NCBI GenBank assembly: GCA_965214095.1
Contig: OZ243938.1
Span: 4,768,001-4,832,000 of the forward strand
Length of the DNA: 64,000 nucleotides
Direction of reading: 5' to 3'
From: Candidatus Poribacteria bacterium
GTDB lineage: Bacteria > Poribacteria > WGA-4E > WGA-3G
A program made the translations under genes and the position numbers. Shown here in pieces: positions 5,220-26,332 of the stretch. Position 1 is the stretch's first letter. Every line of letters starts with the position of its first letter. The notes beneath the pieces were generated by a model, which searched no databases, was not told where the DNA came from, and saw only the letters and a program-made list of their open reading frames with translations.

Positions 5220-7718
5220 ATGCACGGACCATCATCGGGTTCAAGACGCGGTAGATCGCATCGGATGGGAATGGGATCATTTGGTAGTAAACCACGCAAT
5301 AGAAAAAAAGGTGATAATGAATTAACGACCAAGGAAGAAATCCCGGAAATCCTTGAAAAACGTGCCCAAGAACTGCTTGATAATGGAGAAGAAATAAAGG
5401 TTGCCGTTTCAACCGATTTACAGTTTGATGGCACTTATGGTAAAGATTGGCTATTAGCAACAGATAAAAGACTTATTGCGTTCAATCAGAACGGTGCACT
5501 TGGTCACGACATACAAGAAGTGTCTCTCACTGCAGTAGAAGATATTGAAATCCTTGAAATGTACGGCAATAACATTCTCAAGGTTACCACTTCCGAAAGT
5601 GCTGTTGAGTTGGCGCGATATTCTAAGCGGTTAACTCCAAAATTCAACATGACAGTCGCTGAATTAGAGACCTTGTCTTCATCAAAAGGTTCCGTTCTTT
5701 CAGAAAAGCGTGGCCGTAGAAGACCTGGACTAGGTGGACGTGGTGGTCCTCCCGGTTTTCGAAGCGGCGGAGATAGATCACGATGTGAGAAATGTGGTGA
5801 ACCCATCCCAAGTTGGTCAGGTGTCTGTATCAACTGTGTCCAAAAAAGCAAACTCATTTTCCGTCTATTCAAATATGCCCTTCCATTCCTATATGTCATT
5901 ATTCCTGCCTTCCTAATGATGTTAGTGATCCGATTTATTGATGTGTATCCTGGTAAACTTAGCAGAGAATTGGTGGATAATATCCTGGTACCTGCTGGCA
6001 ATGTTTTTGCAGTTGCAAATGCCGATGGACAAGCAATTCCTGAGCAGCTACCAGAGACATCTTGGGGACACCTTGAGGGTCTCAGTAATACATTAAGCAG
6101 TTGGTTTGGGAGCATGCCGCTTGCCGGTAGTTTCGGGCATTTCCTAACCATTATCCTTATTATGGTTGGTCTTAGTGTCTTTAATATGGGTTTATCCTCA
6201 GTACGCGGCTATATGATGGCTTGGGTAGGTCAGAACATTACAAGGCGGCTGCAAAATCAGACTTATGAACATCTGAATACGCTTTCTATTGATTTTTTCC
6301 ATGATCGTGACACTGGCAATCTGATGTCCAGAATTACGCACGATGTGTCAAGGCTTAGAGATTTCATTGCAAACGGACTTCAAGATATTATCGGTGATTC
6401 ACTCACACTGATATTTATGTGTGCTTTAATGTTCGCTGCAAGTTGGAAGCTTGCGTTATGGGTTCTAATTCCGATTCCTTGTCTCATCTTTTTTACAATT
6501 TTATTTGGTAAACAGATGAGTAAAGTATATCAGGTTTTGTGGAAACGTTATGCGAATATCAGTACAATTCTGGCAAGTGTAATTCCCGGTGTTCGTGTTG
6601 TCAAAGCCTTTGCAAGAGAACGATATGAGATAAATAGATTCAGTGAACTGACATATCAAGTGTTTTCTGGTGAATTGAACGCAGCAAAACTAGGGTCACT
6701 TTACCGACCCATCATGCAGTTTATAACCTACTCAGCTTCAATAATCATCTGGTTAGTGGGTGGATGGCAGATACTTCAAGGAGAATTGACACTTGGTATA
6801 CTATTTGAGTTTCAATATTATATGGTGCGTTTCTTTGGTCCTGTAAGGACTCTCTGTGAAATGAATGAAAGATTTATCCGAGCGGGTACTTCCGCAGAAC
6901 GCGTCTTTGAGATATTAGACACGCCTCCTACCGTCTCAGATAGAGATGATGCACAAACAATTGACAACATTAAAGGTGACATTGAATTTAGAGAGGTATT
7001 CTTCACTTACGATAACGAGAAGAATGCTATAAATGGTGTGAGTTTCCAAGTTGAGGCAGGTGAGATGATCGGCTTGGTCGGACACAGTGGTGCAGGAAAA
7101 AGCACTCTCGTCAATCTCATTACGCGGTTCTATGACCCAATGCAAGGGTCAATCGTTATTGATGGACATGATAGCAAAGACATACGCGTTAAATCATTGC
7201 GTCAACAGATTGGTGTTGTCCTGCAAGACCCTTTCCTCTTTGATGGAACAATCGCAGAAAATATCGGTTATTCAAAACCAGGTGCATCTCGGATAGAGAT
7301 CATTGCATCAGCGAAAGCTGCAAATGCACATGATTTTATAGTCAAATTTCCTGATGGATATGATACTATGGTCGGTGAAAGAGGCGCACGCGTTTCTGGT
7401 GGTGAAAGACAAAGAATTTCCATCGCTCGTGCCATTTTGAAGAATCCACGTATCTTGATCCTTGACGAAGCCACATCTTCTATTGACACTGAAACAGAAT
7501 CTAAAATCCAAGAAGCGTTGGAACGACTTGTCAGAGGGAGAACAGTGTTTGCAATTGCACATAGACTCTCAACGCTAAAATATGCAGATCGTCTCGTCGT
7601 TTTGAAAGATGGTGAAGTGGATGAGATTGGCACACATGAGCAATTGATTGCACAAGACGGCACTTATGCTAATCTGTGTCAGAAACAGACTGAATTATCA
7701 AGAATCCGTGCATGGTAA
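5220..7718 (+). CDS. ABC exporter (fused TMD + ATPase) with N-terminal PH-like and zinc-ribbon extension
   Basis: Walker A GHSGAGKST, signature VSGGERQR, Walker B ILILDE, multiple TM helices, CxxC..CxxC. Confidence 0.9.
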   Translation: MHGPSSGSRRGRSHRMGMGSFGSKPRNRKKGDNELTTKEEIPEILEKRAQELLDNGEEIKVAVSTDLQFDGTYGKDWLLATDKRLIAFNQNGALGHDIQEVSLTAVEDIEILEMYGNNILKVTTSESAVELARYSKRLTPKFNMTVAELETLSSSKGSVLSEKRGRRRPGLGGRGGPPGFRSGGDRSRCEKCGEPIPSWSGVCINCVQKSKLIFRLFKYALPFLYVIIPAFLMMLVIRFIDVYPGKLSRELVDNILVPAGNVFAVANADGQAIPEQLPETSWGHLEGLSNTLSSWFGSMPLAGSFGHFLTIILIMVGLSVFNMGLSSVRGYMMAWVGQNITRRLQNQTYEHLNTLSIDFFHDRDTGNLMSRITHDVSRLRDFIANGLQDIIGDSLTLIFMCALMFAASWKLALWVLIPIPCLIFFTILFGKQMSKVYQVLWKRYANISTILASVIPGVRVVKAFARERYEINRFSELTYQVFSGELNAAKLGSLYRPIMQFITYSASIIIWLVGGWQILQGELTLGILFEFQYYMVRFFGPVRTLCEMNERFIRAGTSAERVFEILDTPPTVSDRDDAQTIDNIKGDIEFREVFFTYDNEKNAINGVSFQVEAGEMIGLVGHSGAGKSTLVNLITRFYDPMQGSIVIDGHDSKDIRVKSLRQQIGVVLQDPFLFDGTIAENIGYSKPGASRIEIIASAKAANAHDFIVKFPDGYDTMVGERGARVSGGERQRISIARAILKNPRILILDEATSSIDTETESKIQEALERLVRGRTVFAIAHRLSTLKYADRLVVLKDGEVDEIGTHEQLIAQDGTYANLCQKQTELSRIRAW

Positions 7719-23933: not shown

Positions 23934-24746
23934 ATGAGAATAATTGATCCGCATGTTCACGTGTGGAAAAACGACCCAAAGTTTCCGTGGGCACGGGAAA
24001 GAAATCATCCTGCTGATGATGCTACTCCAGAAATGTTGTTGGAACTAATGGAAGCAAACGGTGTTGAAAAGACTGTGCTTGTTCAGGTTATCCATTATCT
24101 GTGGGATAATAGTTTCGCTGCTGATGCGATGAAAAGATACCCAGACAAATTTATGGGTGTGTGTAGAATTAATCCTGAAGATTCGGATGCTCCTAATCAT
24201 CTAACTTACTGGACTGAGGAACATGGATTTCACGGTGTTCGTTTAAGTCCATCTGTTGGTGCTGATGGAGATTGGTTTAAAGGTCCATTGATGCCGCCTA
24301 TCTTCAGTCGTGCGGAGTCATTAGGTGTGCCGATGTTAATTCTAACGAGGGCAGAGAGATTGGTTGACTTGGTACCACTGTTAGAGCAGCATCCTGATCT
24401 TGATGTGGTGATTGACCACATGGCAGACTGTTCACCGGAGGAACCAGAGAAGCTGCAATTGTTGTTAGATTTAGCAAGATATCCTCGTGTTTATGTGAAG
24501 ATAAGTCATACTTGGTCTATTTCAAAAGCAAGTTATCCATGGACAGATACATACGAACAGGTGAAGAAAGTGTATCAAGCATTTGGCGCAGACCGTATTA
24601 TGTGGGGAACTGATTGGCCTGTCTGTTTAAGTCGTGCCACCTATTCAGAGACTTTGTCGGTTGTTCGTGATGAGATGGAATTCTTTACACCTGGCGATTT
24701 AGAATGGGTTTTAGGCAAAACAGCACTTAGTCTATGGCAATTTTAG
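23934..24746 (+). CDS. amidohydrolase 2 family (sugar-lactonase-like)
   Basis: IDPHVHVW, VVIDHMA, VYVKIS, RIMWGTDWP. Confidence 0.9.
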   Translation: MRIIDPHVHVWKNDPKFPWARERNHPADDATPEMLLELMEANGVEKTVLVQVIHYLWDNSFAADAMKRYPDKFMGVCRINPEDSDAPNHLTYWTEEHGFHGVRLSPSVGADGDWFKGPLMPPIFSRAESLGVPMLILTRAERLVDLVPLLEQHPDLDVVIDHMADCSPEEPEKLQLLLDLARYPRVYVKISHTWSISKASYPWTDTYEQVKKVYQAFGADRIMWGTDWPVCLSRATYSETLSVVRDEMEFFTPGDLEWVLGKTALSLWQF

Positions 24747-24757
24747 CGCAATAAAGA

Positions 24758-24818
24758 ACATAAGAATTACATTGACATAAGAATTACATTGACATAAGAA
24801 GAATTAAAATGTTAATAT
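24758..24818 (+). promoter_or_regulatory. 17-bp tandem repeat carrying a sigma70-like promoter
   Basis: ACATAAGAATTACATTG x2.5 (24758-24800); TTGACA 24789-24794, 18-nt spacer, TAATAT 24813-24818 preceded by TG. Confidence 0.5.
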
Positions 24819-24936
24819 TTAGACAAAATAAGTCTGAATCTGGTCACAACACGTTGTCAACAATAGAGGTTGATGTTAACACATATTCAATATACATAGC
24901 AAAAAATACAATCAGATTGTATTAAAGGGAACTAAA

Positions 24937-25992
24937 ATGAAACATCTGCTTTTGATGATATTATCTATCCAATTCATATTTCTACCCCTCGGTTTTGCAC
25001 AAGAGAGCTGAGGCGCGTGAAGTAATCCCACTATCCCTCAGGGAGGTGGAAGTGAAGTTAGTTTAACTTCAGAGAATAAGAGATTTCAAATTAGTCTTGG
25101 TACACGGACATTCAACGCCGAGGGTGGACATATTGAATACAATGGATTGTCTCAGGTTGGCAGCCTTCCTGAACAAGTTCCAGAACATAGACATGAAGTT
25201 AAGTTGAACGTTGTTCGGTTTGATATTGGGTTTAAATATCAAATCAGTAGACAGTTTCAGTTGGACGCAATGTTGCCTTATGAAATAAAAGATCAAGATG
25301 CAAATGTTGGTGGACTTGATAAAATAGATAATGAAGAGATGAGAAGAAAAATCTTACTCTATCAAGAAATCCATCATCGCGACGAAACATATCGCGGTTT
25401 TTCAGATATGGATCTTTTATTGGGTTATCAAAGACATGGGATCTTTCTGAATCATGACATGCTATCAGCAAAATTCGGCACAACAATCCCATTGGGAAAA
25501 ATTGAAGATAATCCGTGGACACTTGGAGAAATGGGGATGGAGCATCTCCATATTCAATTCGGTACTGGCACGTTTAATCCAATTGCAGATTTGCGCTACA
25601 GTTTTCCGATACTTAGTGGGTTGAGAGCGAATGCAAGTATCCGTGGTAAGTATCCTTTCTATGAGAATAGGAAAGAATATCTCGGTTCAAAGGACATTAC
25701 CTATACTGCAGGTCTGAATTATCGGGCTGCTGATTGGCTGTCGTTTCAGACAAGTTATCTTGGATTATATCAATCCTACGCGCATTGGGCAGGAGAAATA
25801 GATATCAATACGGGGCTGCGGTTTAGTATGGTATCATTCGGAACATCTATAGCCACTCCATACAATGTTCCTCTTTCTATAACGTTTATGCTGCCAATTC
25901 AACAGGAAACTCTATATGATGATAGTGCATCTGGGAACGATGCATTCAAGTTGGGATCGTTAGTATCCGTTAGGGCTTTGTATTCCTTTTGA
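24937..25992 (+). CDS. putative di-selenoprotein (UxxU) outer-membrane beta-barrel, 351 aa by readthrough
   Basis: AAGGGA RBS, ATG 24937, signal peptide MKHLLLMILSIQFIFLPLGFA, then QES-TGA(25009-11)-G-A-TGA(25018-20)-SNP, open in frame into ORF 25147..25992; QFGTGT motif, alternating beta-strand pattern, C-terminal YSF. Confidence 0.8.
25028..25071 (+). promoter_or_regulatory. candidate SECIS hairpins
   Basis: CCACT-A-TCCC-TCA-GGGA-GGTGG (25028-25049) and TGAAGTTA-GTT-TAACTTCA (25053-25071), directly after the two TGAs. Confidence 0.5.
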
Positions 25993-26092
25993 GTAGAATT
26001 CCGGGATTTGGTGAGCTGCGAAAATAGTCAGTTGGAGTTCCTCATCAAATAATTCATAGACAGGTGGTTTGCCGCTTAGTTCTTCGCTTTCG

Positions 26093-26332
26093 TTATTGTG
26101 TATCCTTAATTTTAACGATTAAGTATAAACTTGCAAAAATGAAGAATGTTCCTGTTAATAAATAACTACAACCCTTAATTTCATTTGTATAGTTCATAAA
26201 TGGATTACCAGCAAAAACATTCCATTCTCTATTATTTGGACTTTCGTATTCGTAAATTCCAGCAATTATGAATACGATACCCGCAATTATCAATAGTGCT
26301 AATATACTTTGTGAGAAAATTTTGTTGATCAT
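26093..26332 (-). CDS. small two-TM membrane protein
   Basis: Two hydrophobic segments, AGGA RBS. Confidence 0.55.
   Translation of the reverse strand: MINKIFSQSILALLIIAGIVFIIAGIYEYESPNNREWNVFAGNPFMNYTNEIKGCSYLLTGTFFIFASLYLIVKIKDTQ

Follow-up and report, generated by a model that had tools for sequence, protein, structure and literature searches.

A candidate di-selenoprotein outer-membrane barrel of Candidatus Poribacteria and its possible part in soft-metal handling

The gene described here lies in a 64,000-nucleotide stretch of the genome of a Candidatus Poribacteria bacterium (contig OZ243938.1, positions 4,768,001 to 4,832,000 of the forward strand), which we call the window and whose numbering is used below. 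The gene contains two in-frame TGA codons, and the sequence evidence makes it very probable that both encode selenocysteine (Sec, U), i.e. that the product is a genuine di-selenoprotein with a U-x-x-U motif. We are similarly confident that this is a previously unlisted selenoprotein, belonging to an uncharacterised family of outer-membrane barrels of which it is the Sec form. The fuller reading, an exported outer-membrane di-selenoprotein barrel that handles a soft metal (Hg or Cu), is in our judgement probable, if not strongly so.

The reading frame and its two TGA codons

Direct reading of the sequence gives a frame of 351 codons on the plus strand, from ATG 24937-24939 to the stop codon TGA 25990-25992, in which the sole interruptions are TGA 25009-25011 (codon 25) and TGA 25018-25020 (codon 28). 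The mechanical list of open reading frames (ORFs) starts the gene at TTG 25147 and ends it at 25992 (281 amino acids). The first-pass annotation, made from the letters alone, had proposed instead an upstream ATG with a ribosome-binding site, in frame with this TTG and separated from it by two TGAs only, and the sequence is as it described. The candidate ribosome-binding site, recognized by inspection, is the purine-rich AAAGGGA at 24924-24930 (+), 7 nt before the ATG. The readthrough product starts with MKHLLLMILSIQFIFLPLGFA followed by QESUGAUSNPTIPQGG..., and residues 1-21 (MKHLLLMILSIQFIFLPLGFA, 24937-24999, +) are predicted from sequence features to be a signal peptide, with a K-rich n-region, a hydrophobic core, small residues at -3 and -1, and likely cleavage between GFA and QES. 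The His-rich motifs GGH, EHRHE, IHHRDE and EHLH, the QFGTGT motif and the C-terminal YSF noted earlier are all found in the readthrough product. We take the full selenoprotein coding sequence to be 24937-25992 (+), 351 codons plus the stop, as homologues with two TGAs match it over residues 1-351.

A six-frame search of 176 genomes of the phylum with the readthrough protein as the query found a homologue in 140 of them: in all 111 of the organism's own family, and in 11 of 11, 10 of 29 and 7 of 7 genomes of three further families. An in-frame TGA was present in every match among those listed, mostly two, with eight matches having one and one having three; 99 further matches lie outside the listed ones. 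The source genome has a second copy (52% identity), likewise with two TGAs, and the homologues in ten more distant genomes (36-49% identity) contain one or two each. The prediction that the TGAs would be conserved in related genomes is thus borne out, and it extends to Acidobacteriota. In one homologue (L076, G119:C5:3400-6467) a third in-frame TGA stands where all others have Trp (MMRUFD vs. MMRWFD), for which a sequencing error, a recent nonsense mutation or some other cause may be responsible. Tandem CxxU and UxxU copies, approximately 2.5 kb apart, occur in some Poribacteria (L103, motifs at 6019 and 8590; G055:C1:6235495-6239088, L056 and L061), and the frame upstream in L051 and L052 has the FYSF tail of a further copy at its end.

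Fifty-eight genes were extracted for comparison by codon. Codon 28 (25018-25020, +) is TGA in all 58, and codon 25 (25009-25011, +) is TGA in 51, TGT in 4 and TGC in 3. Every one of the 58 encodes a signal peptide, variable in sequence yet hydrophobic and in frame, followed by Q-[ED]-S-[U/C]-x-x-U-[ST]-N-P. Codons 26 and 27, between the two TGAs, vary synonymously (GGT/GGC/GGG/GGA and GCG/GCC/GCT/GCA), and the true stop codons are TAA, TAG or TGA, so that conserved in-frame UGAs are combined with varying true stops, as is characteristic of selenoproteins. Among 30 orthologues of the genus the nucleotide diversity by codon position follows the order 3>1>2 both in codons 2-24 and in codons 29-70, like in the rest of the gene. 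The TGAs recur far more often than expected by chance.

The stretch is present without any difference in sequencing runs X1 and X4, which are possibly the assembly's own source and then not independent of it. A contig from the RNA-library run X21, which derives from a relative (30 differences in 415 nt), spans 24926-25340 and has both TGAs unchanged with a C>T substitution at 25014, between them; this is a weak hint, and contigs from an RNA library are no proof of transcription.

The columns occupied by the two TGAs contain Cys in more distant members of the family, which is another hallmark of selenoprotein genes. A profile search of 1.84 billion representative proteins yielded 481 relatives, and those that are full-length and uninterrupted have CxxC exactly at the two Sec columns: QACPACSNP (CPACSNP) in the nearer relatives, ACAGCRNP (CAGCRNP), ACAACGNP and similar sequences in the distant ones. 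In named genome records the distribution of the motifs follows taxonomy, with CxxC in 18 Bacteroidota loci, UxxU in 25 loci (Poribacteria, five Acidobacteriota and two unclassified) and CxxU in 37 Poribacteria loci; this count leaves out L087, which mismatched the search pattern, and five off-target pattern matches. A quick maximum-likelihood tree of 82 rows (IQ-TREE, with support by the Shimodaira-Hasegawa-like approximate likelihood ratio test only, and several long branches) places the 55 Sec-containing rows on one side of a branch with support of 89 and the 27 CxxC rows on the other. CxxU forms have originated three times or more inside UxxU, always with the second Sec retained. Trp at these columns occurs only in two library entries (QDSWGAWSNP, ACSLWSNP) that are the same genes translated with TGA as Trp, so the expectation that homologues would have U or C there, in any combination, and not Trp, proved right. 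In the public proteins P0165 and P0166 both family TGAs are shown as Trp (QDSWGAWSNP); such entries probably result from gene calling under a TGA=Trp code, and they could mislead homology-based checks.

Could the short ORF from TTG 25147 to 25992 be the real protein, or the gene a pseudogene, with the upstream stretch conserved for some other reason? Every gene caller chose the short form, and coverage of the readthrough product does not exceed 89% in the best 120 of 444 related database proteins. The short protein would however be a barrel lacking a signal peptide and its first strand (residues 50-70 in the structural model described below), the upstream 70 codons evolve like coding sequence, and the uninterrupted Cys homologues align from the signal peptide onward. 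The first-pass annotation had considered a pair of independent nonsense mutations unlikely, and the comparison sides with it: nonsense codons of that origin would not have remained TGA in all 58 genes with the true stops varying. We consider this explanation hardly credible.

The source genome contains the components needed to insert Sec, as had been anticipated: selA (616 bits), selD (361 bits), selB (355 bits) and, adjoining selB, one tRNA-Sec (78 bits). It is very improbable that the TGAs are instead read as Cys, by recoding of the tRNA-ReC type, or as Trp or Gly in a variant genetic code. Genomes with UxxU-type hydrogenases often carry tRNA-ReC-like tRNAs (PMC13582414), and two database entries show Trp at these codons, as mentioned above. 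Against this, the genome has a single tRNA with the anticodon tca among its 46 tRNAs, and ARAGORN and Rfam agree that it is tRNA-Sec; the sub-threshold tRNA-Sec matches are ordinary tRNA-Ser, tRNA-Leu and others; the homologue columns contain Cys, never Trp; and TGA ends 259 of 1367 long open frames of the genome, besides this gene itself, and thus is an ordinary stop codon here. A variant code and tRNA-ReC were accordingly rejected. The selD gene (L019, G000:C1:1272212-1273138) has one in-frame TGA, so SelD itself appears to be a selenoprotein form. In other phyla selA was detected above the cut-off in four of five Acidobacteriota genomes with UxxU and in none of five Bacteroidota genomes with CxxC, the completeness of these genomes not being established.

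RNA hairpins downstream of the UGA codons

Two hairpins can be drawn in the RNA shortly after the UGAs. Hairpin 1 (25028-25049, +; CCACU.UCCC pairing with GGGAGGUGG, loop UCA), found by folding, has its apical loop 20-22 nt after the second UGA and 29-31 nt after the first. A hairpin is present at this position in nearly all homologues, with a shifting register, and its pairs covary (pair 30:55 is CG in 27 and UA in 22 sequences, pair 34:48 AU in 25 and GC in 18). Hairpin 2 (25053-25071, +; UGAAGUUA-GUU-UAACUUCA) comes from the RNAalifold consensus of the 58 sequences. Its loop, GUU, is 43-45 nt after the second UGA, and 98% of its cells are paired, pair 66:72 being UA in 31 and CG in 26 sequences and pair 67:71 AU in 47 and GC in 6. 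For both helices together 94.4% of the cells pair, 7 of 13 pairs have changed on both sides, slid controls are 28-56% paired and none of 500 shuffles reaches the observed score; it must be noted that the structure was derived from the same related sequences, and these figures thus lean in its favour.

A control that holds the protein fixed compared the 54 nt after codon 28 with synonymous recodings. The mean z of the folding excess was -2.44 in 18 Poribacteria representatives (range -1.2 to -3.9) and -2.12 in 7 UxxU genes from Acidobacteriota or unclassified sources; it was -0.26 in 18 CxxC genes and -0.2 in 162 control windows. The Acidobacteriota UxxU genes show the same hairpin layout, with GGU[UC] as the loop of hairpin 2. 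From these comparisons the Cys forms appear to lack the structure. Conservation of synonymous sites peaks at codons 38-49.

In the proposed mechanism the two hairpins would direct the decoding of both UGAs by SelA, SelB, SelD and tRNA-Sec. In many sequences the 5' arm of hairpin 1 is doubled 8-9 nt apart (CCCAC..CCCAC), and the spacing of the UGAs is 9 nt. The hairpin could therefore re-form at the same distance when the ribosome advances from one UGA to the next, and the tandem UGAs may be served by such a sliding selenocysteine insertion sequence (SECIS), a suggestion made from the sequences.

In bacterial SECIS elements the apical loop is at a distance of 16-37 nt from the UGA, with a G among its first nucleotides. 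Neither hairpin fits this consensus on both distance and loop: hairpin 1 is at the usual distance but has no conserved G in its loop, whereas hairpin 2, with its G-U loop, is 43-54 nt away from the UGAs. This is one of several observations that speak against the decoding proposed here. The folding excess of the window gene itself is modest (z -1.64; 7.7% of the recodings fold as well), and the peak of synonymous conservation is not unique, there being a second one near codon 245. Among the Acidobacteriota genomes with UxxU the one that contains L099 has no selA above the cut-off, the completeness of this genome not being established. Moreover, the related genomes are not independent of each other, and all counts given above therefore overstate the support. 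With these points taken into account, we infer that selenium is incorporated at both codons.

Fold and family placement

The product is highly likely to be an outer-membrane barrel. AlphaFold2, run with a 46-sequence alignment, returned a model (predicted local distance difference test score, pLDDT, 79.4; predicted template modelling score 0.78) with a helix at residues 2-18, corresponding to the signal peptide, a low-confidence segment at residues 19-45 and then a 12-stranded barrel. Together with Foldseek and the invariant alignment columns this delimits a predicted beta-barrel domain at residues ~50-351 (25084-25989, +). In a Foldseek search of the PDB the amyloid secretion barrel FapF was the best match (5o65, 5o67; E 1e-13, template modelling score 0.66-0.73 on the target), followed by the COG4313 channel (4rl8; E 8e-10, score 0.70) and then by FadL and TodX. 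In a protein atlas a Cys homologue stands beside PF13557 'MetA-pathway/transporter' clusters and a cluster of hypothetical proteins from Poribacteria. The likeness to barrels of the MetA-pathway/transporter kind, which the first-pass annotation had suspected, is therefore supported at the level of the predicted fold. After cleavage of the signal peptide the mature N-terminus, QES-U-G-A-U-SNP, would carry the two selenocysteines, ahead of a FapF/COG4313-type barrel of 12 strands formed by residues ~50-351.

Pfam gave no match above threshold for the readthrough protein (Phenol_MetA_deg, PF13557, 12.6 bits vs. 22), and the Cys homologues remained below threshold too. NCBIfam (release 20.0) yielded no family for the readthrough protein at E up to 1; for 10 Cys homologues its sole match was a fused heavy-metal-associated (HMA) domain in P0134. 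A profile search of the PDB sequences found no match, and the database relatives are named 'hypothetical protein' in their sources. Within the Sec clade His65, His84, His86, His146, His147, His203 and His205 are invariant. Family-wide, at 24-61% identity, the two Cys/Sec, N-P, His71, His91, HHR, E, G and D are invariant, and HxH is nearly so.

The first-pass annotation did not recognise the protein as belonging to a described selenoprotein family, and neither did our comparisons. It matches none of the 119 prokaryotic selenoprotein families catalogued in Table 1 of a May 2026 review (PMC13188914), nor the NCBIfam models NF041115, NF049945, NF041027 and other selenoprotein models. We found no literature description of this barrel family; unnamed candidates in the supplements of selenoproteome surveys could include it. 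Nearest in kind in the table of the review are an FCYXU-type TonB-dependent receptor, the GSU2204 MtrB/PioB barrel, a UxxU HMA protein and a Sec-containing MerT (PMC13188914); all four have NCBIfam models, and none of these matches the barrel.

It is instructive to compare the family with these and other known systems. The TonB-dependent receptor (NF049945) and the GSU2204 barrel (NF041027) share with it the presence of Sec in an outer-membrane beta-barrel; as described in the review, they are different barrel families with one Sec each (PMC13188914). MerP, MerT, HMA domains, the UxxU metal-binding protein NF041115 and the Sec-containing MerT share a CxxC-type pair replaced by Sec and a heavy-metal context, but in these Hg/Cu carriers the motif is on a ferredoxin-like HMA fold or an inner-membrane helix and not on an outer-membrane barrel. 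The COG4313 channel (4rl8) and PF13557 share the predicted 12-stranded outer-membrane fold, to which the present family, sub-threshold in Pfam, adds the N-terminal [U/C]xx[U/C]xNP, seven invariant histidines and links to metal genes. FapF is the best structural match, yet its sequence identity is 11-12%, it lacks the Sec/Cys pair, and we found no fap genes or families among the scanned neighbours of the window gene, its paralogue and the relatives. A paper of September 2026 reports UXXU-type Group 4 [NiFeSe] hydrogenases with two UGAs three codons apart, possibly served by one downstream SECIS; there CxxU and UxxU interconvert on the tree, and Poribacteria are among the Sec-using phyla (PMC13582414). 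These hydrogenases are cytoplasmic Ni-binding enzyme subunits, unrelated to the window barrel in sequence and location.

Gene neighbourhoods and possible function

The soft-metal reading comes from the gene contexts of the relatives. In Bacteroidota and Acidobacteriota the gene directly upstream encodes an exported protein in which an HMA domain (GMxCxxC) is fused to a thioredoxin (WCxPC), and often overlaps the start of the barrel gene by 4 nt. Pfam identifies both domains in L080, L099, L104, L109 and L113, and the thioredoxin only in L098. By clustering, related ORFs are upstream in 24 of 24 loci with the motif, which is an upper bound as the cluster absorbs other HMA proteins. In L080 the barrel gene is part of an operon with the order ArsR-type regulator, MerT-HMA, MerA-like reductase (565 amino acids, HMA plus pyridine-nucleotide disulfide oxidoreductase), CsoR-like repressor, thioredoxin, MerT-like, HMA-thioredoxin, barrel, YdjM. 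This mer-like operon (L080:1334-8045, a Saprospiraceae record) is of unusual make-up, combining ArsR- and CsoR-type regulators, two thioredoxin-type genes and a CxxC barrel. In P0134 a C-terminal HMA domain is fused to the barrel itself (43 bits).

The CxxU paralogues of Poribacteria are in a conserved operon of a different kind, a Cus-like efflux operon. It comprises, in this order, a Cys-rich ORF of 146 amino acids, the barrel, an ORF of 209 amino acids without assigned function, a pair of OEP genes and the gene for a CusB-like fusion protein that has four heavy-metal-binding domains. The Pfam annotation of this operon was made on L123, and the neighbour clusters recur in 34, 23, 22 and 17 loci, numbers limited by the length of the flanks. 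The Cys-rich ORF (L123:5240-5680, +), directly upstream of the CxxU paralogue, has a signal-like N-terminus and homologues in 34 loci; neither it nor the conserved 209-amino-acid ORF directly downstream of the paralogue has a Pfam match.

An in-frame TGA also interrupts the metal motif of three exported HMA proteins of the source genome (GMTUGSC, GLAUGSC and GMTUSAC), which suggests that selenium-based metal ligands are a habit of this organism. The first two are small exported proteins encoded in tandem at G000:C1:4077548-4078226 (L164, L166), near a cation-efflux-family gene but in no clear operon, and the third has its HMA domain at the C-terminus of a large repeat protein (G000:C1:648574-648747, L165).

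Weighing these contexts, we slightly favour the binding and relay of a soft metal (Hg, Cu or Ag) by the U-x-x-U pair and the histidines as the most likely job of the protein. The pair would be the selenium version of the vicinal CxxC of MerP, MerT and HMA proteins, and a vicinal [U/C]xx[U/C] pair, of the type that binds Hg(II) in mer proteins, is indeed invariant across the family. It may chelate a soft metal ion, Hg(II), Cu(I) or Ag(I), and the ion might be passed between the barrel, with its seven invariant histidines, and periplasmic metal carriers, in either direction. We infer metal binding, the direction of transport and the role of the window's copy from such comparisons.

Several findings count against this assignment. 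Neither the window gene nor its paralogue in the same genome has metal-related neighbours, and the 18 UxxU loci of Poribacteria share no conserved neighbour. The source genome has no MerA above the family cut-off (best match 383 bits vs. 454). The residues 19-45 have pLDDT below 50, and the model therefore does not fix the place of the UxxU motif relative to the barrel. The suggestion in the first-pass annotation that the selenocysteines act as a soft-metal ligand thus stands in part: it is supported by the context of the relatives (mer-like operon, HMA-thioredoxin neighbour, fused HMA domain, Cus-like operon), and linkage to merA/merT was found for the Cys homologue in L080, whereas the window's copy has no direct link of this sort and lies among non-metal genes.

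The same data can be read in other ways. The UxxU motif might be a redox centre, the barrel using diselenide/selenol cycling for a reducing or gating function with electrons from a periplasmic thioredoxin. The conserved upstream partner of the relatives has a thioredoxin domain with an invariant WCxPC, most of the prokaryotic UxxC/CxxU selenoproteins in the catalogue of the review are thought to be redox proteins (PMC13188914), and there are no metal genes near the window's copy. That partner, however, always bears an HMA metal-binding domain as well, one family member has an HMA domain fused to its barrel, the operons of the relatives are mer-like and Cus-like, and seven invariant histidines suit a metal site better than a pure redox relay. 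We consider a purely redox function unlikely. It seems still less plausible that the protein passively conducts small molecules, hydrophobic or other, in the way suggested for COG4313 and FadL-type barrels, with UxxU as a plug or lock only, even though its nearest folds are FapF, the COG4313 channel and FadL/TodX, Pfam gives weak hints to Phenol_MetA_deg, its atlas neighbours are PF13557 'transporter' clusters, and the UxxU copies stand alone in Poribacteria. The Pfam hint is below threshold, neither the motif pair nor the His columns vary from phylum to phylum, and the relatives have HMA, MerT, MerA-like and CusB-like genes as partners rather than genes for hydrocarbons or fatty acids.

If the barrel does bind and relay soft metals, a more far-reaching and rather doubtful idea can be put forward. 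The family might be the missing outer-membrane step of bacterial Hg/Cu traffic, its Cys/Sec pair handing Hg(II) or Cu(I) to exported HMA-thioredoxin carriers, with the ligands upgraded to Sec in Poribacteria and some Acidobacteriota and the tandem UGAs perhaps served by a sliding SECIS. In the generic mer scheme, as drawn in one figure legend, Hg crosses the outer layer by diffusion (PMC8261052), and a dedicated outer-membrane Hg component, if true, would change this picture. With the Cys relatives, the mer-like operons of Bacteroidota are seen to include a barrel that is uncharacterised, and in sponge symbionts the Sec form suggests that soft metals are handled in the cell envelope by means of selenium.

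The findings also matter for annotation. Public gene calls truncate the protein after the TGAs (in the best 120 of 444 relatives) or misread the TGAs as Trp, and the annotation is thus wrong, with the functional tip missing, for a protein that 140 of 176 Poribacteria genomes encode, most often twice. The catalogue of selenoproteins would gain a two-Sec family and a rare case of Sec in an outer-membrane protein. The tandem UGAs with two conserved hairpins offer a natural system in which to study how one mRNA directs two close Sec insertions.

As for the surroundings of the gene, its neighbours in the window encode an LPG synthase TM protein, an amidohydrolase, an alpha/beta hydrolase, an HD domain protein, PhyH and an M32 peptidase. 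A scan around the gene found no terminator, and Rfam gave chance-level matches only on 24700-26200. A promoter-like site at 24789-24818 (+), ~120 nt 5' of the ATG, matches the consensus at 10 of 12 positions (TTGACA, an 18-nt spacer and TAATAT, with TG before the -10 hexamer); the scan is a pattern match only, with 13 sites in the region vs. 7.6 expected. Two genes away from the paralogue in the same genome there is an IS605 OrfB/TnpB-like gene with a Cas12f1-like TNB domain (L167:4147-5730, minus strand, corresponding to G000:C1:2759589-2761172).

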